Positions 20,307 through 44,523 of a stretch of DNA of 64,000 bases are shown here, in pieces; positions within the stretch are counted from its first letter, which is position 1; every line of letters begins with the position of its first letter. Under the pieces are notes generated by a model. It did no database searches. It was not told the origin of the DNA and saw only the letters and a program-made list of their open reading frames with translations. Made by a program: the position numbers and the translations under genes. The DNA lies in the NCBI GenBank assembly GCA_029259415.1, contig JAPDIW010000005.1, positions 13,805 to 77,804 of the forward strand, written 5' to 3'. This stretch comes from Archaeoglobi archaeon (GTDB lineage: Archaea; Halobacteriota; Archaeoglobi; Archaeoglobales; Archaeoglobaceae).

Positions 20307-20903
20307 TTATTCAACGTTCAACCCATGACCCTCAAGGGGGTCAAGGGAGGGGGGTTGTTCACCTATACTTGATTTCAAGATGTGATCCTCCCACATCACC
20401 TCTGAGAGCCACATCACCTTAACTTTATCCCTACCAAATATGTACTTCTGCCTCTTCATGTTGAGCAGTCCGAGGTCGAAGTGAGCAATGTTGTGACCGA
20501 TAAGGTGCTTGGGATTCTCCCTCAGGAACTCAAAAAACTGAACTATCAGATCCTCCTCGGTTGAGTAAAGATGAAATGCAACCTCAATCCCGTAATTCTT
20601 CAGCTCCTCCTTAATCCTCTCCCTTACCTCTTCATCAACAATGCCGTGAACGAAGAAATGAACCTTTTTGGCCGAGATATCATAAAGCTGGATGCTCCTG
20701 ACCTTCGAGTTCAACCTGTAGCTCTCAATATCGAGAACGTAAGCATCCTGAATCGGAAACCATCTTGAAGCATCCAAAAAACGCTTTGTCTCTATTCTTC
20801 TGTTAAAAGGTAAATCATCCAAACTGATGCCCTGACTCTGACTAAGATCAACCTCAACATCAATATCTCCCTGCCTCGCATTTAAATCAGCCAGGGTCAG
20901 CAT
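20307..20903 (-). pseudogene. N-terminal 3'-5' exonuclease region of a family B-like DNA polymerase, truncated
   Basis: ExoI VLDIES and ExoII LIGHNIAHFDLGLL present; no ExoIII or polymerase motifs downstream in any frame I translated. Confidence 0.7.
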
Positions 20904-20998
20904 ACTTCATACTCTGGATCAACACCGTTCAGCCGGTAAACCGACTTCCAGGAACAGCCCTCGTCATCCGGATCCTCAGAAACATTTTTATAAAATAA

Positions 20999-21022
20999 AA
21001 GCCCCTCAATATTGAGGGGCTT
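20999..21022. repeat. Perfect 24-bp palindrome AAGCCCCTCAATATTGAGGGGCTT (terminator- or cruciform-like)
   Basis: Read directly; followed on the minus strand by TTATTTTAT. Confidence 0.9.
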
Positions 21023-21060
21023 GCAGCTTAACGCTGTGAGTTCCTCCAATGCCTTCCACC

Positions 21061-21339
21061 TCAGTACTCCGCATTGATCCACTGAACCCTCTTTTCTCCC
21101 TTTGTGATGTACTTTGCCGGCACCTTCAGAATCACCTTGCCGTTCCTCTTCTCTCCGTGCTTCAGAGCTGACTGAATTGCCTTCTCGCCGAAGAAACCAA
21201 TCGCATCGATTTCCTCTCCATTGTGCCTCCCGTAGACGACCAATATTTTCTGGCCGTCCTTCTCGGTTGTCTGGGCATCCACCACCTCAATTTCTTCCAA
21301 ACCAAACAGATCTCCGAGTTCCAACCCCATTTCTACCAC
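21061..21339 (-). CDS. 92-aa beta-rich protein, possible ssDNA-binding protein
   Basis: Strong RBS GGAGGTGG; located just upstream of the polymerase fragment; function is inference. Confidence 0.6.
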   Translation of the reverse strand: MVEMGLELGDLFGLEEIEVVDAQTTEKDGQKILVVYGRHNGEEIDAIGFFGEKAIQSALKHGEKRNGKVILKVPAKYITKGEKRVQWINAEY

Positions 21340-21342
21340 CTC

Positions 21343-21492
21343 CTAACTTTCGCTTTTGCTCCCCGCCGGACTTGCACCGGCTGAACCGCTATCTCGGTGG
21401 GGAGCATCCAAATTCCTGGCCCTATTCTTGAGCCACCACTCCCTGAATGCCTCAACAGCCTCACAAAACCGGTCAAGAACGTCGTAATCCAT
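21343..21492 (-). CDS. 49-aa hypothetical protein MDYDVLDRFCEAVEAFREWWLK...
   Basis: Manual translation; RBS GGAGGG; coupled to neighbours. Confidence 0.55.
   Translation of the reverse strand: MDYDVLDRFCEAVEAFREWWLKNRARNLDAPHRDSGSAGASPAGSKSES
21357..21405 (-). ncRNA. Minimal tRNA-like structure (acceptor stem, T-arm, one short hairpin)
   Basis: GCTCCCC-ACCG/AGATAG/CGGT-TCA-GCCGG/TGCAAGT/CCGGC-GGGGAGC-A. Confidence 0.5.
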
Positions 21493-21494
21493 CC

Positions 21495-21659
21495 TCAACC
21501 CTCCTCAAAAATAGAAACAAGCTCTTCAGGCGGGATGTTCTCGACCAAATGCTTCACGTTCTTCAGTATCGTCTTCCTAAGGATCACCGGATCCTTGTTA
21601 AGTTCACGCCCAAGAATCCTCGCCATTCTGCCCAGCTCTGGATACACTACTCTCGGCAT
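21495..21659 (-). CDS. 54-aa small helical protein
   Basis: MPRVVYPELGRMAR...; RBS GGAGG. Confidence 0.55.
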   Translation of the reverse strand: MPRVVYPELGRMARILGRELNKDPVILRKTILKNVKHLVENIPPEELVSIFEEG

Positions 21660-21760
21660 GTCAGCCTCCACCCGCACCTGCTGCATCTCCAGCCCTCTTC
21701 AGTTTCCTCGAGTAAACCACCGCAGGGGCAAAGGCCAGAATCAACGAACTGCTGGAGCAT
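21647..21760 (-). CDS. 37-aa zinc-finger protein
   Basis: MLQQFVDSGLCPCGGLLEETEEGWRCSRCGWRLTCRE; RBS GGAGGG. Confidence 0.65.
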   Translation of the reverse strand: MLQQFVDSGLCPCGGLLEETEEGWRCSRCGWRLTCRE

Positions 21761-21762
21761 GC

Positions 21763-21930
21763 TCAACCCTCCAATTTTTTGACCTCTATTTTATTTTCAC
21801 ATATTTTAATAAGAACCTGCTCTCCACTTTTGAATTCAAGAACTTTCACGAGTGATTTTGGCACATAGATTCTCCCTGAACCTTTTTGATCTATGTGATA
21901 CCTACCTACGCCCACACATAAATCGCTCAT
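21763..21930 (-). CDS. AbrB/SpoVT-like regulator, 55 aa (missing from ORF track)
   Basis: MSDLCVGVGRYHIDQKGSGRIYVPKSLVKVLEFKSGEQVLIKICENKIEVKKLEG; RBS AGGTGA; paralogous to 22044-22226. Confidence 0.8.
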   Translation of the reverse strand: MSDLCVGVGRYHIDQKGSGRIYVPKSLVKVLEFKSGEQVLIKICENKIEVKKLEG

Positions 21931-22040
21931 TCTATCACCTCTGATAGAATTCTACAACCAATCCTATTTAACACTTTCGATAACCTTCGATAACTCTCGA
22001 CAAACAAAACTAGGTTTAAGAACCTTACAACAAATGATAA
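21929..22040. promoter_or_regulatory. Divergent promoter/operator region
   Basis: Inverted repeat ATTCTATCA-cctc-TGATAGAAT at 21929-21950; tandem TTCGATAAC x2 plus TCTCGACAAA at 10-bp period (about 21965-21995). Confidence 0.65.
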
Positions 22041-22043
22041 GTT

Positions 22044-22226
22044 ATGGCCGAAGAAGACAAAAGCATTCTTGTATCGGTTGGGAAGATTCACATCGACTCC
22101 AAAGGAGCTGGACGCATTTATCTCAAAAAGAAAGTAATTGATGCTCTTGAAAAGATTGGAATTCAGCACGGTGATGAACTCAGAATTGAAGTTAAAGACG
22201 GAAAACTCATTATCACTAAACTCTAA
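22044..22226 (+). CDS. AbrB/SpoVT-like regulator, 60 aa
   Basis: VGKIHIDSKGAGRIYLKKKV...GDELRIEVKDGKLIITKL. Confidence 0.8.
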   Translation: MAEEDKSILVSVGKIHIDSKGAGRIYLKKKVIDALEKIGIQHGDELRIEVKDGKLIITKL

Positions 22227-22265
22227 ACCGCAATTTATTTCAAGAACAAAATATACACAGAAACT

Positions 22266-22715
22266 ATGATCTATGCATATTCCTTTGCAATCTTCGCAAT
22301 CTTGGTCATTTTCTCGGGAGTGATCGTTATAGTTACTACCCTCATTCTTAAATTTTCCAAAAATGAGCAGCTCAAAGATCGTATTAAGCCTATTGACTTC
22401 TGGCTTACCAAGACTATGAACTTCTCTTTGTTTATGATGCTTGCTTCCCTCACACTTGCTGCTATCTTCAAAGATCCCCCTGAGATGTTCATCCCTCAAA
22501 ACGTCTGGAACCTCGTTCAGCAACATGAAAGCCTTGGAGTTCTCGCTTTTGTTGTATACCTCTGGCTTACCCTCGACAGAAGACTCACAAAAGTCGAGAC
22601 GCAGATTGCACATATTGACGGAGATGTTGAATCCCTTCGAATTGACTTTAAAGAAGAATTCAAGCAACTTCGTGACGATATTAGACATATGTGGAACAAC
22701 ATCTCTAAGAAATAA
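22266..22715 (+). CDS. Membrane protein, about 3 TM segments plus C-terminal coiled coil
   Basis: Hydrophobic segments; LDRRLTKVETQIAHIDGDVESLR heptads. Confidence 0.7.
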   Translation: MIYAYSFAIFAILVIFSGVIVIVTTLILKFSKNEQLKDRIKPIDFWLTKTMNFSLFMMLASLTLAAIFKDPPEMFIPQNVWNLVQQHESLGVLAFVVYLWLTLDRRLTKVETQIAHIDGDVESLRIDFKEEFKQLRDDIRHMWNNISKK

Positions 22716-22850
22716 CATGCCTAACCTCCTCCGTGCACGTAGCCAGGGACGTGAGCACTCCACCTTTACAGGATCAAAATAGCGGCATCTCCTCGGGTTG
22801 TGTAGCCGGCAACGATAAGGGCTGTAAGGATCAAAGTTACTGCACCTCAT
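22716..22850 (-). CDS. Cys-rich small protein (N-terminus of the 307-aa track ORF); true 3' end uncertain
   Basis: MRCSNFDPYSPYRC...CRYFDPVKVEC internal repeat; coupled TGAATG start. Confidence 0.45.
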
Positions 22851-23183
22851 TCAACCCCTCCGAAAATCGCCGGCCAGCTTTCTCTTAAACTGCACATCCT
22901 CAGCCCTGACGAGCTTGGACATCACTCCTCCATCTTCCGTGAAAACCACGAAGAGGTAAGCCCGTTATTTTCCACAAGATGGTCGTGCTGCTCCCTATCC
23001 AGAGTGAACCTGCCCCTGCACCTCCCGACTCCGTTCCTGTGGCACTCCTGACAGGCTTTGATCTCCACCGGCTTACCGTCAATCTGCCCGTCAACGAGCC
23101 CGTTACTGAGAACTTGCAAGCTCCTCAGCCCTCTGACCGTTCAGGTATGCCCTCTCGTTTCTGACGGTTATCAGATCGCTCAT
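22851..23183 (-). pseudogene. Small PD-(D/E)XK nuclease (Holliday-junction-resolvase-like) with two frameshifts
   Basis: MSDLITVRNERAYLNGQRAEELA / DGQIDGKPVEIKAC...GRFTLDREQHDHL / YLFVVFTEDGGVMSKLVRAE in three successive frames. Confidence 0.7.
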
Positions 23184-23329
23184 TTCATCAGCCCCCTGTA
23201 ACAATCACGGCAGAGAGGGCAGCAACCGAGCCAGACCACCTGATCCTCTGACAACCGCTTACCGCAATAGGCACATTCTACAACTGTGATCCGCCTCTCA
23301 ACGTATTCCTTAAGAGTGATGAAAGGCAT
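23180..23329 (-). CDS. 49-aa zinc-finger protein
   Basis: MPFITLKEYVERRITVVECAYCGKRLSEDQVVWLGCCPLCRDCYRGLMK. Confidence 0.7.
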   Translation of the reverse strand: MPFITLKEYVERRITVVECAYCGKRLSEDQVVWLGCCPLCRDCYRGLMK

Positions 23330-23553
23330 CAGGCATCAGCCTCCTCAAAAACAAGATTTATGCAATCGTATGCGTTTGTCAAATGTTTAATCTTCAATCC
23401 GTGCTTTCTCGCCGTTTTCACGATTTTTCCAAAAGTTTCCTTCGCCAGAACTCCGTGAACTTTGAGATGGTAACTGAACTTTTCGCCATTGACAACTTCA
23501 ATCGAAGACGCCTGCGGCAACTCGTCAAGCAACCTCTTAACATCCTCAAACAT
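23329..23553 (-). CDS. 74-aa hypothetical protein
   Basis: MFEDVKRLL...VFEEADA; TGATG coupling at both ends. Confidence 0.7.
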   Translation of the reverse strand: MFEDVKRLLDELPQASSIEVVNGEKFSYHLKVHGVLAKETFGKIVKTARKHGLKIKHLTNAYDCINLVFEEADA

Positions 23554-23672
23554 CAGGCAACCCTCCACTCCCTGCTGACGAGCTCCCTGAGCTCCCTCAA
23601 CCTCTGCTCCCTCGGCATGCCCCTGAGCTTCGCCTTGAGCTCCTCAACCGTCATCTCCCTGTAGCCGGTCAT
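23553..23672 (-). CDS. 39-aa hypothetical protein
   Basis: MTGYREMTVEELKAKLRGMPREQRLRELRELVSREWRVA; coupled. Confidence 0.6.
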   Translation of the reverse strand: MTGYREMTVEELKAKLRGMPREQRLRELRELVSREWRVA

Positions 23673-24019
23673 TAGGCCTCAGCCTCCTTCAGAATAGCAT
23701 CCTCAACCTTACTCTCAAGCCTCTCAAAATTCATCTCAAGTTCCTCAATTCTATCATCGAGCTCTCTAATTTTCTTTTTCAATTCAGCGATTTTGTTGTG
23801 CAATATTCCGATATCTGAATATAGCATTCCGATTGTATCGTTTGCATCAGCCTCCTCATCAAAACTCAAAAAACCCTGCTCCACCATGTTTTTGACACTC
23901 AACACAAGTTCACGCATGCATCTTGGACAAATCGGATATGCACCATCTATATGCCAGAATGTCTTGGCACCGCAGCCTCTGCAGTTTCCTGGAACTCCGA
24001 ATTTATCGTATAGTGGCAT
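23672..24019 (-). CDS. Zn-finger plus coiled-coil protein
   Basis: CRGC...CPRC followed by heptad repeats. Confidence 0.75.
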   Translation of the reverse strand: MPLYDKFGVPGNCRGCGAKTFWHIDGAYPICPRCMRELVLSVKNMVEQGFLSFDEEADANDTIGMLYSDIGILHNKIAELKKKIRELDDRIEELEMNFERLESKVEDAILKEAEA

Positions 24020-24525
24020 CAGGCATCAGCCTCCTCAAAGAAATCGCTTGAAAGAACTTTCTCGAACTCTCCAGCCCTTATCATCTCGGCCATGCGCTCT
24101 TTGTAGGTCTTCAGCGCCTTGAGCCTTGAAAGAGCTGAATCTCTGTTCTTCTTGAATTCCTCAATTCTCTCTTTTGTCTGGGCGATCATCTCATCGATGT
24201 CGAGAAGCTGGCACATCTTGGCCTTGGAGTCCTCTTCTTCGAGAAGCCTCTTCTTGCGATTTTCGAGATCGGCGAGATATCCTGTATCTTCTTCTATCTC
24301 CCTTTCGTATCTTTCGATTTTTTGTTCTGTATCTGCTATGAGCCTCAGATAATCCCTATACAGATTAAGAGCCTCCTCGATCTGCAGGACCTTGAAGAAG
24401 AGCTGGCCGATTACGGCGTCTGCATCCTCATTCTCGTCGATCGCAACTCTTAGACTGATGCGCTCGTTGTTGTAGTTCTTGAGGTTGAAAAGTCTCGAGT
24501 ACTCTACCTCTCTCACCTTCATCAC
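24019..24525 (-). CDS. Coiled-coil protein, 168 aa
   Basis: E/K/R-rich heptads; coupled start and stop. Confidence 0.75.
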   Translation of the reverse strand: MMKVREVEYSRLFNLKNYNNERISLRVAIDENEDADAVIGQLFFKVLQIEEALNLYRDYLRLIADTEQKIERYEREIEEDTGYLADLENRKKRLLEEEDSKAKMCQLLDIDEMIAQTKERIEEFKKNRDSALSRLKALKTYKERMAEMIRAGEFEKVLSSDFFEEADA

Positions 24526-24973: not shown

Positions 24974-25062
24974 GGTTTCAGACCTCTCTTATAGTCCCAT
25001 CTATGAAACTAATGGTATATAAAAGTTCCGAATTAGGGTTCTGGTTTCAAAATTGAAACTAA
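24973..25062. promoter_or_regulatory. Divergent promoter with paired half-sites TGGTTTCA / TGAAACTAA
   Basis: TGGTTTCA at 24973 and 25042; TGAAACTAA at 25004 and 25054; GTTTCAA-aa-TTGAAAC at 25044-25059. Confidence 0.6.
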
Positions 25063-26005
25063 AATTAAAATCAAAAAATTTAAAAGAGATACAGTATAAC
25101 TCTTGCCGAGCTGGTGTCATTATGCCCGAGTGGCTGGATAAATTCGTTAAGGCTACCAAAAAAGCGACCGAGCAGGTGATCGATTCTTCAAAGAAAAAAT
25201 TGAATGAGATGAAATTACTTAGGGAGCTGTCGTTGCTGGAGAAATCCCTTAAAAAGCAAGTTCTGGATAGAATGAGTGATAAAAATCTGGAGAGTATTGT
25301 TAAAAACGAGAAAATTAAGAGTAAAAGTTTACTTATCAAGAAATATAAGAAGGGTAAAATCGACCTCTGGGAATACTTTGACAAGGACGAGTTGACTGAT
25401 TTGCTTGCCGACGAGCTCGACCTCGAAACCGTCCTCTTCTACGCAAAAGAGTTCAGGGTAAAGACCACAGACCTGATCCGCCAGTACAAGGAGAGGAGGA
25501 AGATCGTGATAGCCAGGCTGGCGAAGCTTCGAGATGGTGTCAAGGACTACGGGTCGCAGGATTATGAGGAATACTCCTTCACACCCGATTTGCTCGATGA
25601 GGTGTTGAGTGTCATAAAATCAGAATTTGAGCCGGAGCCGCCCATTATCAACGAGATGGACCTCGAAAAGCAGTTGTCCCTGTTCTTAAAGATGAAGGGG
25701 TACCAGTTCAAGAGGCAGTACAGTCCGGACGGTAAATACAAGGTTGACATCGTTTTTAACGGTGAGATGGGTGTCGAACTGAAGATAGCCGATGATCCGA
25801 GAAGATTGCTGAGCTGCCAAGCCAGGTGAAGCTGTACAAAAAGTGGCTGAGGGATTGTGCTGCCGTAATAGCCGTCCCTTACGGTGTCGATGAGAGCAGG
25901 TTGAGAGATTACTTCGAGCTGCTTGATGAGGAGGGGATCAGGTACATCGTAATCCGCATACCTTACCGGGCTTAAAACTTAAAAAAATTAAAATCAAAAA
26001 ATTTA
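25061..26005 (+). repeat. 22-bp direct repeat AAAATTAAAATCAAAAAATTTA flanking the nuclease gene
   Basis: Copies at 25061-25082 and 25984-26005. Confidence 0.85.
25122..25975 (+). pseudogene. Helical N-terminus plus PD-(D/E)XK nuclease, one frameshift near 25802
   Basis: KVDIVFNGEMGVELK, then in a shifted frame IAELPSQVKLYKKW...IRYIVIRIPYRA (QxxxY motif). Confidence 0.75.
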
Positions 26006-26072: not shown

Positions 26073-26795
26073 GTGATAAAGTTGCCAAGGTCGGCTACAC
26101 TGCTACGGATAGATCCTGAGGTAGTTGAGAGCGTTTTAAGTGTGTTTAAGAGCGTTGGAGAAGAAATCCCATATCAAGACGATTTAGCCATATTTATCAA
26201 GTCGTTTGAGGAATTTGATCAGTACTACATGGGACATATTCTGATCGACCTAGTGGACGAAGTAATGGTCAAAAAAAGAGTGGGTGGTGAGATCAGAGCT
26301 GAGCCTCAGAGTGTTCCTAGATGTGAGGAAGTCAAGTTTGCGTACTTTCCGAGGATCTCGGGGAGTGCTGAAATATCACACGTGACCGTCGTACTCGGTC
26401 GTGAAACCGTTGCCAGACTATTGGCGACGGTCATTGAAAGAATAGTTGGGCGTAGAGCTTTTTTGAAAGTGCGCTTCTCCTTCACACCCTCCAACGAGGC
26501 TGCTATCAGGAACAGCTTTGATGACATCGTGAGAATTCGCGGTGAAGATGTGGTTGACGCTGTAATTTCAGGAATATCGATCAAAGGAAGCAGAATCTAT
26601 CAGGCCTCTCCGGAATACCAGAAGGCCCTAAGCGGCGAGATTAAGCAAATCGGAGTGGCGTTGGGAGATGAGTGGTTTATCGTAGCTAGTTCGGGAAGGA
26701 TAACAACCTACAAAAGACTGTCGGATGAAGAGTTTATTGAGAGGGTTCGCCAAATCATTACGCGCTTTTTAAGGGCTGGGGCCGTAATCTTGTAA
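26073..26795 (+). CDS. 240-aa hypothetical protein
   Basis: Intact ORF with its own promoter; family not recognised with certainty. Confidence 0.75.
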   Translation: MIKLPRSATLLRIDPEVVESVLSVFKSVGEEIPYQDDLAIFIKSFEEFDQYYMGHILIDLVDEVMVKKRVGGEIRAEPQSVPRCEEVKFAYFPRISGSAEISHVTVVLGRETVARLLATVIERIVGRRAFLKVRFSFTPSNEAAIRNSFDDIVRIRGEDVVDAVISGISIKGSRIYQASPEYQKALSGEIKQIGVALGDEWFIVASSGRITTYKRLSDEEFIERVRQIITRFLRAGAVIL

Positions 26796-26799
26796 TTTT

Positions 26800-27501
26800 T
26801 TATATTATTCTTTTAATCTTAGACAGGTACCCGCCAAATAGCTCGTTCTCTATAATTTCAAAAGCTGCCGTAGCCTTTGCAATACTTAATATCATCACGT
26901 CAACCATATTGTCCGATTGATACGTCACCTGTCTGACGCCAAACTTATTAAGCCGTTCTTGGGCTTCCTCTTTGAATTTGCTTGCTTTAGATACATCTTC
27001 GAAAACTATTCGCATACCAAAAAAGGTTTTACTAGGATTAATGTACTGTATAAATCCCTCCGCAATGTCTGCAAGTTTCGAAACCGCTTCACTTAGGCAT
27101 TTTTTATCAATCTTTTCTGGAACCGCATAGATTTTCATTCTTTTCACGTATAAAACACCATCATCGAAGTCGGAAACGTTATCTCTCTCTTCCTCATAAT
27201 CTTCTTCCGACTCTGTAGGCAGGTACAGGTAGTCTGGAGCAACATCTTTTATTCTAACGTTCTCGGCAATGTATTCGTTTCCGTCCCTCTTAAAACCGAT
27301 ACTCGTTAGAATATCATCCAATCTAATTTTCCAGTCATCCAATCTAAGCGGTTCTACGAAGTCAACTACAAGAAATAGGCTCAAGCGGACTTTTCCATAG
27401 GAGCTTTTTTCGACTAATTTGAACGTCTTGTCTGCAAGCTTTGCTCCAATATGTGCCAAAAATCCTTTAGCAATGCCGTAACCAACAGTCTCGAGACTCA
27501 T
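26800..27501 (-). CDS. 233-aa hypothetical protein (AT-rich)
   Basis: Intact ORF convergent on the previous gene. Confidence 0.75.
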   Translation of the reverse strand: MSLETVGYGIAKGFLAHIGAKLADKTFKLVEKSSYGKVRLSLFLVVDFVEPLRLDDWKIRLDDILTSIGFKRDGNEYIAENVRIKDVAPDYLYLPTESEEDYEEERDNVSDFDDGVLYVKRMKIYAVPEKIDKKCLSEAVSKLADIAEGFIQYINPSKTFFGMRIVFEDVSKASKFKEEAQERLNKFGVRQVTYQSDNMVDVMILSIAKATAAFEIIENELFGGYLSKIKRII

Positions 27502-27856
27502 ATTACATTAGAGTTTTAGTGGTAGAAGTAAAAGTAATTTTTGGTGTTGGATTATATCCACTTCTCATCTCGCCCAGTATACCTCCTCAGGTTCGGTCAG
27601 CAGAGTAGTGGAACCCCCGGAATACGGTCAACAAGGTGTCGGAGGTAATAGCCCGAAAGGCTGTAAAATCTCGAAAGAAAGGCTGTAATGGGATTTTCTC
27701 TCCTTTAATAGAATATCTTCTTAAAAGAGATCTACTAAGAATAGGGTTCACATAAAATATAGAATAGCCAAAATTTATTTTTTGCCTTGGATCGTAATGG
27801 TTTGTGATAGGTCGATAATATTATCTCAAACTTATGAAAATAGACGATAGAACAGG

Positions 27857-28714
27857 CTAGTTCAGCCCACCCTCTTTATAAAGAACACGGTCAAGAACGG
27901 AGAGGTGGGACCTGAGCATCCTCATCCTCTCGGCAACAATTCCAAAAGCCTCCCTATCACCCAGACTCATCTCCTGCCTGTTCAGACGCTTCGAAAACAG
28001 GTTCCTCAAAAACCTCAAAAGCAGAATGAACCAGTACCTCTTCCTGTCGTCGAAAACCAAGGCAGCCCTCTTGCTCCTGCTGTAGCCCTTCCGCCTGAAA
28101 GCTCCCCTCACGCCGCTCGTGTAGCGGCCTATAAGCACATAGGTCTCGTTAGCGGCCCTCTTCTTGTGCTGCCCCGCCCTGCCCCTCACACCCTTAACCT
28201 GCCTCACGAGCTGGTTGAGGTTCTCCTGGGCCTTCGAGGGCGGGATGTACCACCTCCTCCTTCTCACCGTCAATGCAACCATGTGGACCTCGTGCCTGGT
28301 GATGGGGATGAAGAGCACCAGAGTGTCTGTGCGGCCGTCCCCCTTCTTGCCAGGCGAGAGGTGGATGTAATCTCCTGGTTGCTTGACCCCAGCGGCAGAC
28401 AGCATCTGCAAAAACAGCACCTGCATCTTTGAGGAAACATCTTCAAAATCAAAAGAAAAGGGAGGTAAGAACCTTCCAGAACGCCAGACGGGCTCGAAGA
28501 TCTCCCTGTTCAGGTCGAGAAACTCCGCCGCCTCTTTTGCCGTTCCTTTAAATCCATAATAAGTCAATGCATCAAGGAGAGCCTTTGGGAACCTCACACC
28601 TTGAGACCTGATAAGCCCCACTACCTCGTCGAGCTTACAGGCTAACTCTGAGAGGGATGAGATTAGGTTGTCGAAAGATGGTCCTTGAGTTGTTGAGGCG
28701 TCAGCTGCTGTCAT
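27857..28714 (-). CDS. 285-aa basic hypothetical protein
   Basis: Coupled behind an RHH gene; R/K-rich C-terminal half. Confidence 0.7.
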   Translation of the reverse strand: MTAADASTTQGPSFDNLISSLSELACKLDEVVGLIRSQGVRFPKALLDALTYYGFKGTAKEAAEFLDLNREIFEPVWRSGRFLPPFSFDFEDVSSKMQVLFLQMLSAAGVKQPGDYIHLSPGKKGDGRTDTLVLFIPITRHEVHMVALTVRRRRWYIPPSKAQENLNQLVRQVKGVRGRAGQHKKRAANETYVLIGRYTSGVRGAFRRKGYSRSKRAALVFDDRKRYWFILLLRFLRNLFSKRLNRQEMSLGDREAFGIVAERMRMLRSHLSVLDRVLYKEGGLN

Positions 28715-29310: not shown

Positions 29311-29324
29311 AGGGGGTGTGAATT

Positions 29325-33456: not shown

Positions 33457-33473
33457 ATCTCACCTCCTCCAAC

Positions 33474-36163: not shown

Positions 36164-36590
36164 CCTCGGCCACCTCCGATTTTACCAGCACTTCCACCCT
36201 CCTCCTCTCCTTGGCGTCGTGCAACTTCAACGCGGAGAGGAGCATCTGCATGACCGAGTATGCAACGAGGGCGTAGCCCACAACGTAGCCGTAGCCGACG
36301 TACTGGGCGTAGTCTGGAGCCACCACGAGGATCCTCTCGATGTACACGTTGGCGACGTCGCTGAGCCTCAGGATGGTCGTTCCCAGACCCAGAAAAACGA
36401 CCGAGTTGAGGAAGAACACCAGAGCTTCAAGAATCTCGGATGGGATCTCCCTTCTCTTCCCGTTTTTCTTCTCTCCGGTCTCGACGTCTTCTTCGTCGAT
36501 ATCTTCTACCTCAAAGTCATCCCAATTCTCTTCAACATCGACGTCCTCCTCATCAACCCGTCTTCGCCTGAACAACCTAATTCCTGTCAT
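36153..36590 (-). CDS. Membrane protein with acidic N-terminus and 2 TM
   Basis: D/E-rich tract followed by two hydrophobic segments. Confidence 0.75.
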   Translation of the reverse strand: MTGIRLFRRRRVDEEDVDVEENWDDFEVEDIDEEDVETGEKKNGKRREIPSEILEALVFFLNSVVFLGLGTTILRLSDVANVYIERILVVAPDYAQYVGYGYVVGYALVAYSVMQMLLSALKLHDAKERRRVEVLVKSEVAEDAS

Positions 36591-37203
36591 ACCACCACCC
36601 CGCTAAAGCCAGGAAGCCCAGGGTTCCGAGAACGGCGTAGACGACCCACATGGGCGGGAAGTAGAGCAGGAACCCCATCAGCTGCTCCCCGACGGTCGGT
36701 TTATCGGCAACTGCCTCGATATCTGTCCTCATCGACTTCAGCTCCTCCTCAAACCGGGACAGCTTGTCGTTGAGCTCGATTAGCTTGAGCCTCATCTCGT
36801 CCGGAGTGACGGGCCTGTAGAGCTCTTCTGGGTACACCTTGGCTTTGAAGGTCTTGGTTGAGTAGCTGAAATCGTTATCTGACAGCTTCACGTACTGAAC
36901 GTTCACAACCTGCTGGGTTACCCTGAGCTTCCAGCCCGTCTGATCCTCCTTCTCAATAACACCACCAGTAACCTTGATCCTGTCCGCTATGGCCCTCGGA
37001 AAGTGACTGTACCCTCCGATGTAGAGCTCCCTCGTGACGTCCCCCTCGTATGTGTAGTAAATGGAGGACTTCAGGCAAGCGGGCTCGCCATCTCCGACCT
37101 CGGATGCCTGCACGATCGCTATCGTAACTATCCCGTACAGGCACAGGGTGAGTAGGACCAGCAGGATCACCACAATCGCTCTTCTAGCGTCCACTCTCTC
37201 CAC
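36577..37203 (-). CDS. Protein with N- and C-terminal TM and an extracellular domain
   Basis: Hydrophobic termini and a short coiled coil. Confidence 0.75.
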   Translation of the reverse strand: MERVDARRAIVVILLVLLTLCLYGIVTIAIVQASEVGDGEPACLKSSIYYTYEGDVTRELYIGGYSHFPRAIADRIKVTGGVIEKEDQTGWKLRVTQQVVNVQYVKLSDNDFSYSTKTFKAKVYPEELYRPVTPDEMRLKLIELNDKLSRFEEELKSMRTDIEAVADKPTVGEQLMGFLLYFPPMWVVYAVLGTLGFLALAGWWYDRN

Positions 37204-37441
37204 CCCCCGTCAGCCTGAGAACCGTATCAAGGGCGTTCAGCTGAGCTTTTAGCTCCTCTAATCTCTCTTGGGCAAACTTGCGTGTTTCTGGGTCGTTAAT
37301 GTTTCTGAGGTCAATTTCCAGCCGTTTTATGTCAAATTCCAGAATTCCTTTCTGTCTTTCGATTTCTTTTCGATCCTGTTCGGAGTATGGCACTTGGACA
37401 TTGAGCTTCTTCGCTCCATTCTTGAATCTGATGTTTATCAT
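37184..37441 (-). CDS. 85-aa coiled-coil protein
   Basis: Overlaps both neighbours. Confidence 0.65.
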   Translation of the reverse strand: MINIRFKNGAKKLNVQVPYSEQDRKEIERQKGILEFDIKRLEIDLRNINDPETRKFAQERLEELKAQLNALDTVLRLTGGGESGR

Positions 37442-37833
37442 ACCCTCACGACCTCCTTAACGAATCTGATACTGTCTAAGACTCTCTCCGCAACATACAC
37501 AACCGCCCAGATTAGCAGAAATGCCCATATCAGCGTAAACCCTGCAAGATGTCTGTGCACATCCTTTGAGACGAGTATAGAGAGCGTTGCCACTGCTGTA
37601 AATGCTATCATGCCTTCAAGAGCATAGTCAATGATTCCTGCAAGCCACCCATAATCTGCAAGCCACTCCAGACCTCTCCACGCTTCCCCTCCAAACAGGT
37701 CTGCGAAAGCCCATACCCTGAAAACGTATCCGTCCGGTAGGCCGAATCCCCTAAAAACAACCCACTCCATAAGGAACAGGGTAATCCAGTAGCCAAGCAT
37801 GCCCAAAATTCCGGTTTTGAGATGTTGGTTCAA
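37438..37833 (-). CDS. 131-aa multi-TM membrane protein
   Basis: Three hydrophobic segments; TTG start. Confidence 0.7.
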   Translation of the reverse strand: MNQHLKTGILGMLGYWITLFLMEWVVFRGFGLPDGYVFRVWAFADLFGGEAWRGLEWLADYGWLAGIIDYALEGMIAFTAVATLSILVSKDVHRHLAGFTLIWAFLLIWAVVYVAERVLDSIRFVKEVVRV

Positions 37834-39229: not shown

Positions 39230-39478
39230 TCACAACCTCCCGAGAATCAGATTCCAGATCGGGTTGAAGATCAGGTAGCCGGTTAGCCACCAGATGAGCA
39301 TGTAGAAGCAGATATGGGCAGCCACACCCACTATGGTCTCGCTCTCGGACCAAGCGTGCTTGGCTGACTTCCACATGGCCAGCAAGAAGAAGATGAGCGA
39401 GAGTGGGCTCAGGCCGGTGATTATCTGAAGCTGCGTGAAGAGGTTGACGATGCTGCTGAAGAGGTCGGCAACGGTCAC
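39230..39478 (-). CDS. 82-aa membrane protein
   Basis: GTG start overlapping the upstream stop; 2 TM. Confidence 0.65.
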   Translation of the reverse strand: MTVADLFSSIVNLFTQLQIITGLSPLSLIFFLLAMWKSAKHAWSESETIVGVAAHICFYMLIWWLTGYLIFNPIWNLILGRL

Positions 39479-39654
39479 TCTCTCATCCCCCTGATCACAT
39501 CGATGAAGACTCCAGCCCCGGCGGCGAGGGCCGCGTAGTTCAGCGCCTGGTTCATGAACCACTTAGTGAACTCCTCGTAGCCGAACTCCTTGATGTAAAC
39601 GAGGCAGAGGCAGACGAAAAGGCAGAGACCGAGGAACGTGAACGTGGGCTTCAT
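39475..39654 (-). CDS. 59-aa membrane protein
   Basis: MKPTFTFLGLCLF...; RBS GGAGG. Confidence 0.65.
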   Translation of the reverse strand: MKPTFTFLGLCLFVCLCLVYIKEFGYEEFTKWFMNQALNYAALAAGAGVFIDVIRGMRE

Positions 39655-39974
39655 CGCATCGCCCCCAGGCTTACGGTTATGTTCGCGAAGTTCCATGCGA
39701 CGACTGCTGCGAGTATCGCCGTGCAGAGCAGCAGTCCCTTCTTGGCGAGGATTGGGTTCCTGCTCCTTAGCTCGTAGGCGATCATGACGACCAGACTCAG
39801 GCTCACACCCTTCGCGAAGAAGAATGCCTCCGGCGAGTGCTCGTAGATCGGGTTCAGCTCGAAGCCCAAGCCGGCTTCGATGGCGTATATCGTCACCGCC
39901 GCGTCGATGGCAGAGAGTACTATCACGCACGTAAGCAGCAGGCTGAAGCCGACCCAGGTCTTCAAAGCGTACAC
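39651..39974 (-). CDS. DUF5658-like membrane protein
   Basis: AIDAAVTIYAIEAGLGFELNP motif; 3 TM. Confidence 0.7.
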   Translation of the reverse strand: MYALKTWVGFSLLLTCVIVLSAIDAAVTIYAIEAGLGFELNPIYEHSPEAFFFAKGVSLSLVVMIAYELRSRNPILAKKGLLLCTAILAAVVAWNFANITVSLGAMR

Positions 39975-39986
39975 CTCCGAGAAAAA

Positions 39987-40508
39987 TTAGAGGATGACTC
40001 TGATGATCCCCATGCCCACCTTTATTCCGACCGCCACCCCCACAGGGATTATCAGAATCCCCCAGAGGAGCGTATCGACGAGCAGGTTGTTGAACAGCGG
40101 CGGGCAGCTCTGCTTCACGAAGAGGAAGTATCCTGCCACATAGCTCATGTAGCCCTCGTAGCCCGTGACGTTGAGTGTTATGGTGTCCGTTGCGGGGGAG
40201 GTTTCTATCGTGATTGTGCCCGAAGACTTGTCCACGTGGAAATATGCGTTATCCTCTCCCTTGTTGACTCCGTCAACGAGGATTGAGTAGCCTGTGCCAT
40301 CGGCAACCCTCACGAAGATTGTATCGCCGTAGTGGACTTCAACATCTGTGAAGTTGGTCGTGTAGCTCCCTTCCAAGCCAAAAAGCCCTCCGTTGCACAC
40401 TTCGAGGGTTGCGGCTGTGGCGTTGACAATGGCTGCCGTGCTGACTGGAATCCATGCGAGCATTAGAAAAATAAGGAGTTTTAAAGCTCTCATTCCAGCC
40501 CTGTTCAT
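39987..40508 (-). CDS. Secreted protein with C-terminal TM
   Basis: Signal peptide ending STA-A; beta-rich domain; TM. Confidence 0.75.
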   Translation of the reverse strand: MNRAGMRALKLLIFLMLAWIPVSTAAIVNATAATLEVCNGGLFGLEGSYTTNFTDVEVHYGDTIFVRVADGTGYSILVDGVNKGEDNAYFHVDKSSGTITIETSPATDTITLNVTGYEGYMSYVAGYFLFVKQSCPPLFNNLLVDTLLWGILIIPVGVAVGIKVGMGIIRVIL

Positions 40509-43333
40509 AGTACCACCCTTATCAGCGTCAGCACCAGGCTCACTACGATGAGTCCGCCTATGAGCAGTATGAACGCCCACAGAATGCTGTCTATCGCTTG
40601 GTTACCGAGAATCGGATAAGCAGTTGCGAGCTGTCCGAGAAATCCGCCGAACCCCGTGGTGGTGCCGACCTTCACGGTAATCTCGTTCTCAACAGTCTCC
40701 CCGGTGGCCGAGACTGCTGTAACGTTGTACACCCCCGCCTCGTCGAACGTGTAGCGTGCGGGATCCTTGACGAAGGTTGCAGTCTTGTTTCCGTTGATGT
40801 ACAGCTCTCCTCCCTCTGCGACGACTTTCCCGTTCTGCAGGATGGCGAACTCCACCTCGGAGCCAACTGGTAAGGCGACATCGCCGAACTGCCAGCTCTT
40901 GAACCACTCGTCTATGCTGTCCCAAGCCCAGTAGAGCCCGTAGCCCATTCCTGCTCCTATCGCGGCTCCGGGGATTGCTCCGATTCCTCCGCCGAGAATT
41001 GCTCCGATTACTGCTCCTATTCCAGCTCCAAGTCCGGTTGAACCCATCGTGTTCTCGCTGCTCTGCTCTGGCACTTTAACGAGCTTCCAGCTGAGGAGGT
41101 AGCTGTTCGGGTCGACGACCTCTATGTAGGCTATGTCCGTCAAGCCGTTGTACTCCGCCCTGAGCGTGTAGTTGCCCGGGTCAACGAAGTCGTAGTCCAG
41201 CCAGGCCCCGAAGAACCAGCCCCTCGTCTCGCCAATCATCTCCCCGTTAAGATATATCGGCACGTCAGCCAGCTCGGCTCCGTGCTCGTTCACGACGCTG
41301 ATTTTGCGTTTTCCAACCCACACAACCTGCCCGTCTGCATCGCTTCCGTCTATCCTCAGCTCTATCCTTGTTGTTGTGAGGTCTTCACCCCCATCGTCGT
41401 CCAGGTCTCCTGATGGCTTGAGGTAGACCGTAAGCTCGGTGTCAGCAGAGAACTGCCTGTCCTCAATCAGCTTGTTGCTGTAGTCTCCTGATGGGTCGGA
41501 CACATGGATGGTGTAGCTAACTCCCGAATCCACCGTCAGAACTGCTGTACCATCCTCCCTGGTCACCTTCTGCTCCACGACAGAGCCGCCCTTCAGCAGC
41601 GAGACCACCACACCCGGGATGGATTTCTCCGAGTGCTCGTCGAGAACCCTGACCGTGAGGGTGAGGCTCCCGCCGTCCTTGTCAAACTCGTCTACATCGC
41701 TGTAGACGTAAACAGTCCCAGTTCCGGTGCGGAGCACTCCTGAAGAGGTGGTTATCTCCGCATAGACCTCGTGCAACCCCACATTGTTGAAGGGATAAGT
41801 AAGTTCGGGGTCGGCATCCCCTATCCTTTCTCCATCGACAAGTATGACACTCCTCACAGCCTCCTTCTGCACCCCGTTGCAGACCTTGACTGTCTTGAAT
41901 GTGACCTTGCCCCCTACCTTGACGGACTGAGGGGAATAGATGAGCGTGTACTGGCATCCGTCCTCATCCGGCTCGGTTCTCGGGTAGTCACCGTCATCCG
42001 CTCCCCCGTTGACGTCGTAGGTCTCGTTCAGAATCGTAACGTTTGTTGCCCTGGAGAGCTCGTCACCGATTTTGGCGTAGACGTAGTGCTCACCTGCAGA
42101 GTCGACTCTGATTACCGCCTGCGGAACGTCTGGGTTAACGAGGTCGTCAAAGAAGTCGAAGAAACCCCAGTCGTCTGGGTCTTTGGTTTTAACTCCTGTT
42201 GATTGCCCGTCAACGTATATCTCAGCCCCCTCAATCCACTCTGGGTCGAGAGGATTCCACCATGCCTTCTGTGTGTTCTTGACCTTGACGATTATCGGCT
42301 CGTTGACCTTGGCTGTGTACTTGTCCAGAATGCAGATGTACTTGCTGTCGGGGTTGCCGTAATCTCCAGGCTGTTCTGGCTGCTCCTCAGGGATTTCCTC
42401 AACCGTTATCACTCCCACCTGGGTGTCGTTGTAGTAAATCTCCACGTACCTGGGAAACTCTGCTACCTCGGCAGCGAGGGAGTGCTCTGGTTCTGGTGTG
42501 CTGTACAAAACATCTCCGCTCTCGCTCTTAACCACAAACTTGAACTTCTTCCCAGACTCCTGAGACAGATAGACCCAATATGTACCCCCTAAATCTCTGA
42601 CCGAACCGTTGAAGGTCACAGAGTTCATTGAGGTGTAAACCTTGACGCTTGCGTGGTCTGGGATTGCTGGGGAGCTTCCGCTGCTTTGCGAAAGTGATAT
42701 TGATACTAAGCTGAGAGTATCCTTGACTATCGTTTTGTCGTTGTAAATATCGCCTATAAACTCACTGTACCACTGCACGATAGGTGTCCCCCAACTCGTG
42801 TACCCGACAATCCTGTACTCCTTAGCCCTTACAGTTATCGAGTCATCTGCAACTTTACTCCAGTCCACGTCAAAATAAATGTCCATCGTGCACGGTTCAA
42901 ATCCAACGTAAATCGTCGCTGTGCCGATTTGCGTTTTATCCGAACCCGTAACCACCCTTCCGTCCAACACCCAGGGCCCAGTAACATATTCTAAACTCGA
43001 TGTGCCGGCACCCAGTTCTGCCCTATAAACTTTATGTTTGCATGAGCTGGCTGGATAGATTATTTCCAGCTTGCTGATTTTTCTGCCAGCCAATCCACTT
43101 ATCGTAATCGCATTCTTCTCTACTATCCCATAATTCCAGCCTGTAAACTCTATATGCCTCTCAGTCGTTGACGAACTCGTGTTGGCCTCGAAGATTCTCT
43201 CGTAAACGTCCCCAGGGAGGTAAACCGTCTTGCTTATCTCTACAGTCGTTAGAGCGTCAACTTCTTGTGCCGACGCTGGAACTGCCGTCAGTGCAATAGC
43301 CACTATGCAAAAAAAGAGAAGAAAACGCTTCAC
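40505..43333 (-). CDS. 942-aa surface/spike-like protein with signal peptide, repeated Ig/PEGA-like domains, glycine zipper and C-terminal TM
   Basis: PASA signal cleavage; IYVDG, ILVDG, IYLNG, LYING repeats; many NxT/S sequons. Confidence 0.85.
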   Translation of the reverse strand: MKRFLLFFCIVAIALTAVPASAQEVDALTTVEISKTVYLPGDVYERIFEANTSSSTTERHIEFTGWNYGIVEKNAITISGLAGRKISKLEIIYPASSCKHKVYRAELGAGTSSLEYVTGPWVLDGRVVTGSDKTQIGTATIYVGFEPCTMDIYFDVDWSKVADDSITVRAKEYRIVGYTSWGTPIVQWYSEFIGDIYNDKTIVKDTLSLVSISLSQSSGSSPAIPDHASVKVYTSMNSVTFNGSVRDLGGTYWVYLSQESGKKFKFVVKSESGDVLYSTPEPEHSLAAEVAEFPRYVEIYYNDTQVGVITVEEIPEEQPEQPGDYGNPDSKYICILDKYTAKVNEPIIVKVKNTQKAWWNPLDPEWIEGAEIYVDGQSTGVKTKDPDDWGFFDFFDDLVNPDVPQAVIRVDSAGEHYVYAKIGDELSRATNVTILNETYDVNGGADDGDYPRTEPDEDGCQYTLIYSPQSVKVGGKVTFKTVKVCNGVQKEAVRSVILVDGERIGDADPELTYPFNNVGLHEVYAEITTSSGVLRTGTGTVYVYSDVDEFDKDGGSLTLTVRVLDEHSEKSIPGVVVSLLKGGSVVEQKVTREDGTAVLTVDSGVSYTIHVSDPSGDYSNKLIEDRQFSADTELTVYLKPSGDLDDDGGEDLTTTRIELRIDGSDADGQVVWVGKRKISVVNEHGAELADVPIYLNGEMIGETRGWFFGAWLDYDFVDPGNYTLRAEYNGLTDIAYIEVVDPNSYLLSWKLVKVPEQSSENTMGSTGLGAGIGAVIGAILGGGIGAIPGAAIGAGMGYGLYWAWDSIDEWFKSWQFGDVALPVGSEVEFAILQNGKVVAEGGELYINGNKTATFVKDPARYTFDEAGVYNVTAVSATGETVENEITVKVGTTTGFGGFLGQLATAYPILGNQAIDSILWAFILLIGGLIVVSLVLTLIRVVL

Positions 43334-43352
43334 AGCTCCTCGCCTCCCGCTG

Positions 43353-43748
43353 TTAGCTGGCGGACTCGTTGAACAGGAAGGTCAGGGTTGCTATCGTGTC
43401 CTTCGTGATGGTTACGTTCTTTGCGAGGGTGACTGAGTTCCACTCAGCCTGCACCTGATAGTCACCCACATCTACATCGCTGAAGTAGGCCGTGCCGTTT
43501 TCATCAGTTTGCTTGAGCAGCTCGGTCGACAGGATGCTGACGGTCACGTTGGCGAGCGGGACATCGTCGGTCGTATCGGCCGTCTGCATGGCATCGTAGC
43601 ATAGGACTTTGAGGTCGCCCTTGTCGGCGAACCAAGGGATGCGGTCGGCTGTCTGCTCCCACCAGCCGAGGTAATAGCCGACGCCAGCTATGATCAGCAG
43701 AACGCCGAAACCGGCAATCGCAACCTGCTTGAGCTCCATCCCCATCAC
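43353..43748 (-). CDS. TM-anchored carboxypeptidase-regulatory-like beta-sandwich protein
   Basis: PLANVTV...TDENGTAYFSDVDVGDYQV. Confidence 0.8.
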   Translation of the reverse strand: MMGMELKQVAIAGFGVLLIIAGVGYYLGWWEQTADRIPWFADKGDLKVLCYDAMQTADTTDDVPLANVTVSILSTELLKQTDENGTAYFSDVDVGDYQVQAEWNSVTLAKNVTITKDTIATLTFLFNESAS

Positions 43749-43749
43749 C

Positions 43750-44328
43750 TCACCTCAGTCCCTTTGCCCCCAGAACCGCTATACCGACGCCGAGCAGGAA
43801 CAGCAGCACCGGGAAGAACGCCTCCAACTCGTTGTCGTAGCTAATGGTAGCCAGCGGTGCCGCAACGCTCAGAGCAGCGAGGTTCTTGGCTTCGACGCCG
43901 TAAGCCGTTGCGCTGGCAGAAGTGAACGGGTAGACTTCGACACCGCCGATCAGCTCGATCTCCTTCCCCTTGAAGTCCTCGACCACGTAGCCGGGAATTA
44001 CCTCTTTTATCGTCTTGTCGTCGGTTATGTCGTAGATCGTGCACGTCACGCCACTGCCCGTCTTCATCGCATCGCAACCCTTAACCCAGTCCGGACTGAT
44101 CGAGAAGTAGCTCGGCTTGATAACTATCCTCGCCGAGATCGGATAGGACGTCTTCGGGTCCAGCTTGATCGTCACGTAGTTGAGGTCGTTGACCTCTACC
44201 GGGTCGCTCTGCGTTACGGTTACCGAAAGGGCCGTGTTGCTCTGCGTCACCACTCCAGCACTCGCCGGAACCGCAGCCGCAACGACCAGCACAACCAGCA
44301 CTCCCAAAATCCAACCGGTCTTCACCAA
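43750..44328 (-). CDS. Signal peptide plus C-terminal TM protein, candidate major envelope protein
   Basis: VPASA cleavage site; second gene of the operon; strong RBS GAGGTGA. Confidence 0.8.
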   Translation of the reverse strand: MVKTGWILGVLVVLVVAAAVPASAGVVTQSNTALSVTVTQSDPVEVNDLNYVTIKLDPKTSYPISARIVIKPSYFSISPDWVKGCDAMKTGSGVTCTIYDITDDKTIKEVIPGYVVEDFKGKEIELIGGVEVYPFTSASATAYGVEAKNLAALSVAAPLATISYDNELEAFFPVLLFLLGVGIAVLGAKGLR

Positions 44329-44334
44329 ACAACA

Positions 44335-44523
44335 TCACCTCGCCTTCTTTTTCTTCCTACCTCCACTATTCCCCTTCCTACCTCCTCCACTCTTCCCTTT
44401 CCTCTTCCTCCGCTTCCTGAGTTCGCTCATCGGCACCTCAACTACCTGCATGGTGCCTCCGGGCCCCTTCTTGAAGTGGTAGCCCATCCCCTTCTTCTTC
44501 CTAAACTGCGCGACCACTCCCAA
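44335..44523 (-). CDS. 62-aa highly basic protein, candidate nucleoprotein
   Basis: K/R/G-rich; TTG start after GAGGTGA. Confidence 0.7.
   Translation of the reverse strand: MGVVAQFRKKKGMGYHFKKGPGGTMQVVEVPMSELRKRRKRKGKSGGGRKGNSGGRKKKKAR

Follow-up and report, generated by a model that had tools for sequence, protein, structure and literature searches.

Why should one half of an integrated element stand intact directly beside a half that is visibly broken? This question is raised by a region of the Archaeoglobi archaeon assembly GCA_029259415.1 (Archaeoglobales; Archaeoglobaceae), which was analysed in a window of 64,000 nucleotides of contig JAPDIW010000005.1 (positions 13,805 to 77,804 of the forward strand; coordinates below are those of the window). 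An earlier note, made from the sequence and its open reading frames (ORFs), had treated positions 20307-44523 as a single provirus whose replication half had decayed, and had suggested that the host may have domesticated the intact structural operon. The insertion extends a little wider, from ~20136 to ~44960, and we consider it, with a probability of about 0.62, to be a composite of two distinct integrated elements, here called A and B, whose integrase-proximal ends abut and which have both lost their recombinases. The premise of a single provirus is probably wrong, and the contrast between intact and broken genes is best read as that between two elements of unequal age. Most likely, the operon is intact because its immobilisation is recent, and not because the host needs it.

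The host genes of the window are archaeal (eIF2-gamma, EF-1-beta, FtsZ and ribosomal protein aS21), and the source-named relatives of host and element genes alike are Archaeoglobus or Archaeoglobaceae. The comparison included metagenome runs (X1-X4) and independent contigs or loci (L001-L032); the runs that contain the locus are, by their labels, mostly hydrothermal-vent metagenomes, and no RNA run is among them. The GC content of the host is 0.43-0.47, that of the block at 30.4-44.7 kb is 0.50-0.58, and the stretch of 20-30.4 kb is a mosaic of 0.35-0.57. The lesions of the window recur with identical sequence in independent metagenome contigs and are therefore not private assembly errors, a possibility that the earlier note had itself raised.

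Element A occupies the broken side, and the following features relate it to a known element.

20136-20903, minus strand: remnant of a family-B DNA polymerase (intact length ~1358 aa), closest homolog Asulf_00969
20897-21930, minus strand: small genes (61, 89, 49, 63 and 55 aa) that lie upstream of the polymerase remnant and are colinear with the ArcSul-E1 array; the 89-aa protein of ArcSul-E1 shares 83% identity with 21061-21339, and 20897-21082 shows 52% identity
23183-24973, minus strand: small Zn-ribbon and coiled-coil genes, with the repeated gene junction GGCATCAGGCATCAGCCTCC at 23325, 23668 and 24015
26073-28886, both strands: genes without assigned function, of 240 aa (plus) and of 233, 285 and 61 aa (minus), the 61-aa gene being homologous to the gene that opens the small-gene operon of ArcSul-E1
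28990-29310, plus strand: 106-aa winged-helix regulator (HVO_A0261_N/HTH_45), homolog of the HxlR-like regulators of ArcSul-E1 (36% identity to L028 8164-8469), divergent from the 61-aa gene

In a search of 1.84 billion representatives, the 198-aa polymerase ORF at 20307-20903 aligned to the first ~150 residues of proteins of 1300-1600 aa. Its residues 1-154 are 71% identical to residues 1-152 of Asulf_00969, and its residues 154-198 are 78% identical to residues 1250-1294 of the same protein; an in-frame internal deletion has removed ~1100 codons (3.3 kb). The last ~60 residues are still encoded at 20136-20300, broken by a CAA-to-TAA stop and by local frameshifts, and the damage is worse than the truncation first reported. 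Contigs L015 and L016, as well as unitigs of X1 and X4, show the identical deletion junction, and multiple polB lesions are common to all strains sampled.

ArcSul-E1, which is integrated in A. sulfaticallidus and measures 21.2 kb, has Asulf_00969 as its terminal gene; it encodes a tyrosine recombinase, possesses attachment (att) sites and was described as founding a new group (PMC4104785). Colinearity of the window with ArcSul-E1 covers the polymerase-proximal part, namely the winged helix-turn-helix (wHTH) gene at 28990-29310, the first small gene at 28701-28886, the Zn-ribbon gene at 23183-23330 and the genes of 63, 89 and 61 aa. Both loci share the diverged ~1350-aa family-B polymerase as terminal gene, the small-gene array and the divergent wHTH gene, in the same order and orientation. 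They differ in that the window has lost ~1100 residues of the polymerase, carries ~5 kb of extra cassettes and has its far end replaced by the operon element; no recombinase was found for element A, no direct repeats flank the region, and no similarity to the ArcSul-E1 end sequence was detected. Since the polymerase side matches ArcSul-E1, what had been taken for the replication half of the provirus belongs to another element type. A casposon origin of the polymerase was also considered and rejected, because no Cas1 lies within 10 kb of the intact homolog and ArcSul-E1 has been published as a recombinase element (PMC4104785).

Three observations concern the polymerase end. In L030 and L031 (4398-4904), ~430 nt separate the end of an intact polymerase gene of the ArcSul-E1 type from a tRNA-Gln that has its 3' end towards the polymerase, which suggests that the ArcSul-E1 type also uses tRNA genes and lies with its polymerase tRNA-proximal. 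In X3, the read depth over 20.0-23.0 kb is 0-6, compared with 25-30 on both sides, which indicates that the dominant X3 strain either lacks the polymerase-remnant end or carries a version more than 10% diverged. The neighbouring eIF2-gamma ORF (18737-20113, 458 aa) is over-extended from an upstream TTG; another assembly gives 407 aa and a start at ~19961, and the end of the polymerase remnant would thus lie ~175 nt from the host gene.

Element B comprises the intact side, which is given here in the direction of transcription.

44521-44858, minus strand: control region with three CAACCNGTCTC repeats (44521, 44600 and 44618) and the gene for a 52-aa AbrB/MazE-type regulator (44700-44858)
43353-44325, minus strand: first two operon genes, of 191 aa (signal peptide and C-terminal anchor) and 128 aa (transmembrane segment and carboxypeptidase-regulatory-like domain)
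40505-43303, minus strand: secreted beta-rich protein of 932 aa, with signal peptide, carboxypeptidase-regulatory-like domain, glycine-zipper hydrophobic segment and C-terminal anchor
39230-40508, minus strand: four small membrane proteins of 82, 59, 104 (DUF5658) and 173 aa
37834-39228, minus strand: membrane-anchored subtilisin-like S8 protease of 464 aa that has the Asp, His and Ser motifs
34728-37800, minus strand: six coupled genes of 179 (coiled coil and MarR-like winged helix), 299 (N-terminal transmembrane segment and coiled coil), 145, 205, 85 and 120 aa, four of the six with membrane segments
33474-34697, minus strand: HerA/FtsK-superfamily ATPase of 407 aa, DUF87, with Walker A motif GKGIGKT
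32155-33259, minus strand: genes of 227 aa (one transmembrane segment) and 142 aa (HTH-like), found after the ATPase in most relatives

The description of this operon as intact and translationally coupled holds. It comprises 16 uninterrupted, tightly coupled genes on the minus strand (44325-33474), with overlaps of 4-14 nt at 9 of the 15 junctions, and is followed by two further conserved, likewise uninterrupted genes (33259-32576 and 32583-32155). The products measure, in order, 191, 128, 932, 173, 104, 59, 82, 464, 120, 85, 205, 145, 299, 179 and 407 aa, then 227 and 142 aa; the ORF sizes of 942, 464 and 407 aa given earlier are correct, the first of these genes being called at 932 aa in an independent contig. 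Exact look-ups of the 942-aa and 142-aa ORFs gave no match, for which differing start-codon calls are the probable reason. Wherever related loci have a counterpart, the operon and its two trailing genes are full length. A signal peptide or membrane segment is present in 13 of the 16 products, and recognisable domains are few: two carboxypeptidase-regulatory-like beta-sandwiches (in the 128- and 932-aa proteins), DUF5658, an S8 subtilase, a MarR-like winged helix and a DUF87 ATPase. The protease matches PF00082 with an E value of 2.5e-41, and its motifs VLDTG, HGTE and GTSFAAP can be read in the translation. For the 932-aa protein, an AlphaFold model from the single sequence reached a predicted local distance difference test score (pLDDT) of 38 and was unreliable, and its secondary structure alone was used.

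The invariant core ends with the ATPase gene, and a module boundary lies directly after the stop codon of this gene. It matches DUF87 with an E value of 8e-8, and the GKGxGKT motif is invariant. An AlphaFold2 model built on a 16-sequence alignment (pLDDT 83) found its best Foldseek matches in HerA of T. kodakarensis and S. solfataricus (E values of 2e-16 to 2e-14), with VirB4 lower in the list, and the enzyme is accordingly assigned to the HerA/FtsK superfamily, with a HerA-like fold. Among 5.8 billion proteins it has 18 relatives, of which those with a named source are all Archaeoglobi; none was found in IMG/VR or in phage or plasmid collections, and a search with the 16-sequence profile reached no wider than that with the single sequence. 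A role as a defence-system HerA was rejected on context: the enzyme shares its ATPase fold and best structural matches with HerA defence systems (Sir2-HerA and DUF4297-HerA) and with HerA-NurA repair, but no Sir2, DUF4297 or NurA partner accompanies it and it stands at the end of a 16-gene membrane-protein operon. A tailed-phage tail or tailocin, which had been suspected from the gene sizes, was likewise discarded, as no PHROG tail matches were obtained, the 464-aa product is the S8 protease and the 407-aa product is the HerA ATPase.

The CAACCNGTCTC sequence occurs three times between the AbrB-like gene and the first operon gene, a number reached in 0 of 100 shuffles, and it is also found in the 68%-identical relative L007, both upstream of the operon (250-458) and just after the ATPase (11270-11280). 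These repeats are probably operator sites. Between the regulator and the operon, at 44335-44523, there is in addition a 62-aa extremely basic ORF (rich in K, R and G) with a positive coding score that is not called in contig L001; a small DNA-binding protein is conceivable, but the ORF could also be spurious.

The relatives of element B speak for its separate origin. It is syntenic with L007, L009-L012 and L032, at protein identities of 27-84%. In L009, genes for an M48 peptidase, a Cdc6/Orc1-type ATPase and a tyrosine recombinase come after the operon, the recombinase gene lying directly against tRNA-Phe; in L007, a recombinase beside tRNA-Arg comes after it. When the proteins of L007 and L009 were searched by tblastn against the 64-kb window, the operon was recovered gene for gene down to the 142-aa gene, with no recombinase, no Cdc6 and no M48 peptidase; no integrase domain was found in the scanned window ORFs either, in agreement with the earlier note. 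The available stretches of the five related operon loci show no polymerase, the operon would not fit into ArcSul-E1, and none of the 18 ATPase relatives can be attributed to the A. sulfaticallidus genome. The single half-decayed provirus is thus hard to maintain, as its polymerase side is of the ArcSul-E1 type and the operon's relatives carry an integrase of their own.

What remains of the end of element B is found at its distal, right border.

44944-44965, plus strand: right end of the insertion, where the 3' end of a tRNA is present in degenerate copy (...GCCCTCTTA)

In a contig of X2, a tRNA T-arm and acceptor end (GTCGCGGGTTCAAATCCCGCCCGT) lies immediately left of 44954, of which the window keeps only the degenerate last bases. 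This tRNA 3' end, taken together with the integrase and tRNA of the relatives, indicates that element B was integrated at the 3' end of a tRNA and that its integrase-proximal end was lost afterwards: L007 and L009 have an integrase next to a tRNA, and in the window only the far-end remnant is left. Inside the window, no att repeats or tRNA fragments were found, the tRNA end being seen only from the loose end of the X2 metagenome; the sole tRNA of the window is a tRNA-Leu at 50309, 5 kb outside the region. Across runs, differing sequences join the host flank at 44944-44965, one of which is the tRNA 3' end with GTCGCGGGTTCAAATCCCGCCCGT, and this position looks like an integration hot spot.

Between the two elements lie modules that are shared with other contexts.

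30401-31375, minus strand: radical-SAM gene, spore-photoproduct-lyase-like
31508-32015, minus strand: two-gene cassette of 81 and 92 aa, with homologs in L011 (operon type, inverted relative to the operon) and in ArcSul-E1

The segment 30403-31812 has 2-3 times the depth of its flanks and an alternative left neighbour in the same metagenomes (loose end at 30403), and the segment 32338-33473 has 2-3.7 times the flank depth and an alternative right neighbour (loose end at 33473). Near-identical copies of the modules of 30.4-33.5 kb sit in other contexts. The gene content after the ATPase differs among the window, L007, L009 and L032, and the similarity between L032 and the window ends within 1-2 bases of the ATPase stop, which is the start of the window's repeated segment. 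Within element A, the sister-strain contig L015, from the same metagenome and with the coverage of the operon contig, tracks the window to 23675 and then continues with other small genes. The switch falls inside the middle copy of GGCATCAGGCATCAGCCTCC (23668-23692; the other copies lie at 23325-23349 and 24015-24039), a junction that consists of a ribosome-binding site and an overlapping stop/start between paralogous small coiled-coil genes, which suggests that cassettes are exchanged by recombination at these junctions.

The remaining lesions that had been ascribed to the replication half concern what are probably inserted cassettes.

29325-30409, plus strand: candidate defence gene PDC-M30A, here split into 211 and 161 aa, in a low-GC cassette
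25053-25940, plus strand: nuclease-family gene (phrog_28707), with a frameshift near 25800
22044-22715, plus strand: low-GC (0.38) cassette with a 60-aa AbrB/MazE-like gene (MazE_antitoxin, E value 4e-4) and a 149-aa membrane/coiled-coil gene, as called in L015

The frameshift that had been placed at about 29937 was confirmed as a deletion. The intact allele of PDC-M30A encodes 366 aa in the 98.8%-identical contig L004 of a metagenome-assembled genome (MAG), where it matches positions 8-380 of 381 with an E value of 2.2e-66, and the window lacks 16 nt after 29934. X1 carries this deletion; X3 and X4 do not. PDC-M30A is by its profile match a candidate defence gene, and it is not a replication gene. 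In an X3 variant, the end of the wHTH gene is joined straight to the radical-SAM gene and PDC-M30A is skipped (29310-30403; cassette GC 0.35-0.40). The frameshift at about 25802 likewise stood up: the nuclease at 25053-25829 matches profile positions 28-167, read-through to the next frame extends the match to 28-220 of 244, and the MAG contig L004 shares the lesion. In contrast, the double frameshift at 22851-23183, proposed to feed a 307-aa ORF, did not. This minus-strand ORF (21927-22850) has a coding score of -0.043 and an odd composition, compared with 0.235 and 0.048 for the genes on the opposite strand; no intact homolog of it was found, and it is probably no gene.

Element B is not free of lesions either. 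In the main strain of X4, one inserted base at window position 39085, outside a homopolymer, shifts the frame of the S8 protease by +1 near codon 48; X1, X2 and X3 do not have this insertion. In an X3 strain diverged by 0.13%, no indel occurs in 8.7 kb of the operon. Lesions in either half, in different populations, fit a recently immobilised element that drifts to decay. The depth of the operon equals that of the host, from which it follows that nothing replicates or excises.

Several findings weigh against two abutting elements of unequal age, and they are best considered together with the explanations that they favour. Independent contigs all break at the borders of the repeated segments and 30.4-33.5 kb is spanned by the window alone, so that the physical link between A and B rests on the window's own assembly and their adjacency could be an assembly join. 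Homologs of the 92-aa gene are present in both element types, which shows that modules are exchanged and makes a true hybrid conceivable; high GC begins at 30.4 kb and not at 32.1 kb, which leaves the boundary between A and B unfixed, somewhere within 30.4-32.15 kb. A single mobile element that joined the operon to an ArcSul-E1-type polymerase module, and that now decays from its replication end over 20.1-44.96 kb, would make use of these facts: the blocks are contiguous, the polymerase-linked small-gene array and the operon are co-stranded, the 81/92-aa cassette is oriented as in ArcSul-E1, and pT26-2 elements are known to swap replication modules (PMC6972569). We regard such a hybrid as quite unlikely, given that two of the five polymerase-free operon loci have their own integrase and one also Cdc6/Orc1, that ArcSul-E1 lacks the operon and A. 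sulfaticallidus any attributable ATPase homolog, that the compositional break is strong, and that structural variants of the two parts are independent among strains. The other findings bear on the operon. Between the window and L032 or L009, the ratio of nonsynonymous to synonymous substitution rates (dN/dS) is 0.05-0.28 where dS is unsaturated; the 14 recent within-population substitutions comprise 8 nonsynonymous and 6 synonymous changes, a smaller nonsynonymous share than the ~3:1 predicted by neutrality, and resemble those of the adjacent host gene; and L032, a second integrase-less copy, has its core from DUF5658 to the ATPase intact (82% nucleotide identity in the 3' half), which selection for retention would also give. 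They could indicate domestication, which the earlier note had suggested: the membrane/ATPase operon would serve the host as a vesicle, DNA-transfer, secretion or surface system, and the genes for mobility and replication would be left to decay. The intact operon beside broken polB, nuclease and PDC-M30A genes would agree with this, and for pT26-2 elements the same pattern and hypothesis have been published, with growth reported to be impaired after deletion of TKV2/TKV3 (PMC6972569).

Nevertheless, domestication of the operon is not supported and appears unlikely. The contrast does not lie within one genome, as the genes that are broken come from a different element, and the between-copy divergence may mostly predate the loss of mobility. 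The operon's GC (0.52-0.58) has not been ameliorated and stands 8-10% above that of the host, the main strain of X4 has the frameshift in its S8 protease, and lesions are scattered over both halves. L032 has lost three 5' genes, the large surface protein included, and carries toxin-antitoxin and AAA_15 genes directly after the ATPase stop; the two copies thus retain unequal sets. As the earlier note had allowed for, close relatives lack the element: the neighbours of the M28 peptidase in the species-level relatives L017 and L019 (M28 82% and 74% identical) are ordinary host genes, with no element. An empty-site comparison through these M28 relatives gave no synteny on the element side and no ancestral left neighbour. 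Recent inactivation, offered in that note as a fallback, fits the data better than domestication does. A different proposal, compatible with the composite, is that element B is the provirus of an enveloped, spindle-shaped or pleomorphic archaeal virus. Small two-helix membrane proteins directly upstream of the protease, FtsK/HerA-type ATPases that package the genomes of membrane-containing viruses (with fold matches to PH1 and A32-like enzymes at low template-modelling scores) and spike-like surface-anchored beta-sandwich proteins speak for it. Set against these, a PHROG scan of the 17 genes from 44523 to 32155 matched only the protease, and no capsid, portal or terminase match was obtained there in PHROG or Pfam, where small hydrophobic capsids would escape the search; no relative is present in IMG/VR or in phage or virus records, and in fold the ATPase comes closest to cellular HerA and to the HerA of defence systems, and not to enzymes that package viral genomes. 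The proposal is therefore a tentative one, and equally doubtful is the corresponding assignment of roles, with small hydrophobic proteins as capsid or envelope, the 932-aa protein as spike, the S8 protease in maturation and the ATPase in packaging.

Under the preferred composite of two elements, A (20.1 to ~30.4-32 kb) would be an old ArcSul-E1-type remnant whose terminal polymerase lost 3.3 kb and suffered further lesions, and whose body was invaded by low-GC cassettes carrying the AbrB-like pair, the frameshifted nuclease and PDC-M30A. Element B (~32 to 44.96 kb) would represent an undescribed family, seen only in Archaeoglobi, in which an AbrB-type regulator and operator-like repeats precede the 16-gene operon. 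This operon may build a membrane-embedded, surface-exposed machine, with large adhesin-like beta-sandwich proteins among its membrane or secreted products, that exports the element's DNA through vesicle- or virion-like particles or by cell contact; the ATPase, as a HerA-type hexameric translocase at the end of the operon, would pump the DNA, and maturation of the surface proteins would fall to the S8 protease. Complete relatives have the operon linked to a tyrosine integrase that targets the 3' end of a tRNA, one of them with Cdc6/Orc1 as well; here that end appears to have gone, leaving the distal att remnant. With its integrase end lost, element B is locked in the chromosome, and the fusion with element A may have originated in a single deletion.

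Among known systems, the closest parallel in organisation is the pT26-2 family (pT26-2, TKV2, TKV3, TGV1 and PHV1), integrative plasmids of Thermococcales and Methanococcales (PMC2926602, PMC6972569), for which no homologs have been found outside these two orders (PMC6972569). Badel and others described that integrated copies without replication genes keep the core, and they proposed a host benefit with a GTA-like (gene-transfer-agent-like) or secretion role (PMC6972569). Element B shares with this family a co-directional module rich in membrane proteins. Both have a carboxypeptidase-regulatory-domain protein beside a very large protein with hydrophobic ends, membrane proteins of 8-30 kDa, and a coiled-coil membrane protein shortly before a HerA/VirB4-like ATPase of 400-430 aa. 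From the ATPase onwards, the products t26-14p, t26-15p and t26-16p measure 433, 231 and 104 aa, compared with 407, 227 and 111-142 aa here. An AbrB-type regulator, integration at tRNA genes, a variable replication module and copies that keep the core after loss of replication genes are also common to both. The family differs in its hosts, Archaeoglobales being the host here, in the S8 protease and the wHTH gene present here, and in that the integrases of the relatives of element B are unsplit tyrosine recombinases.

This likeness is one of gene organisation only (order, sizes and membrane segments, against the gene table of PMC2926602), and the search for a sequence link to the seven core genes of pT26-2 (t26-5p, t26-6p, t26-7p, t26-11p, t26-13p, t26-14p and t26-15p) was an indirect one. 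The 932-aa protein matched no chain of the PDB, where a structure of t26-6p is deposited, the ATPase profile found the 18 proteins named above, and no link to pT26-2 by sequence was detected. By analogy, the operon may work like the pT26-2 core module, and element B is not filed as a member of that family. That it is the first Archaeoglobi branch of pT26-2-like elements, a deep family diverged in sequence whose members would share an ancient membrane/HerA-ATPase machine for DNA export, with immobilised copies such as this one and L032 kept by their hosts as a working vesicle or contact system for the transfer of DNA or protein, we hold to be improbable. A further analogy, drawn by Badel and others for pT26-2, is pR1SE of Halorubrum lacusprofundi, a plasmid-like element with many membrane proteins that may build its own transfer vehicle. 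With gene transfer agents (RcGTA-type and the VTA of Methanococcus voltae), only the idea of a host-retained particle module without replication and integration genes is shared. Known agents derive from tailed phages and have capsid, portal and terminase genes, none of which was detected in element B, and the GTA-like system envisaged for this locus is not borne out.

Taken as a composite, the locus introduces, among the cryptic elements integrated in hyperthermophilic archaea, a family that is undescribed and of very narrow distribution, and ArcSul-E1, a singleton type until now, gains a counterpart in a second lineage of Archaeoglobus. Decay of such elements is seen here to proceed by invasion of cassettes and by modular exchange at repeated gene junctions, and the locus is cautionary in that an intact half beside a broken half can come from two elements of unequal age, with lesions accumulating in both. 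Whether the pT26-2 core serves a virion, conjugation or vesicle export has been a long-standing question, and an independent lineage with the same layout, to which a protease has been added, would help to define the essential components of this machinery.

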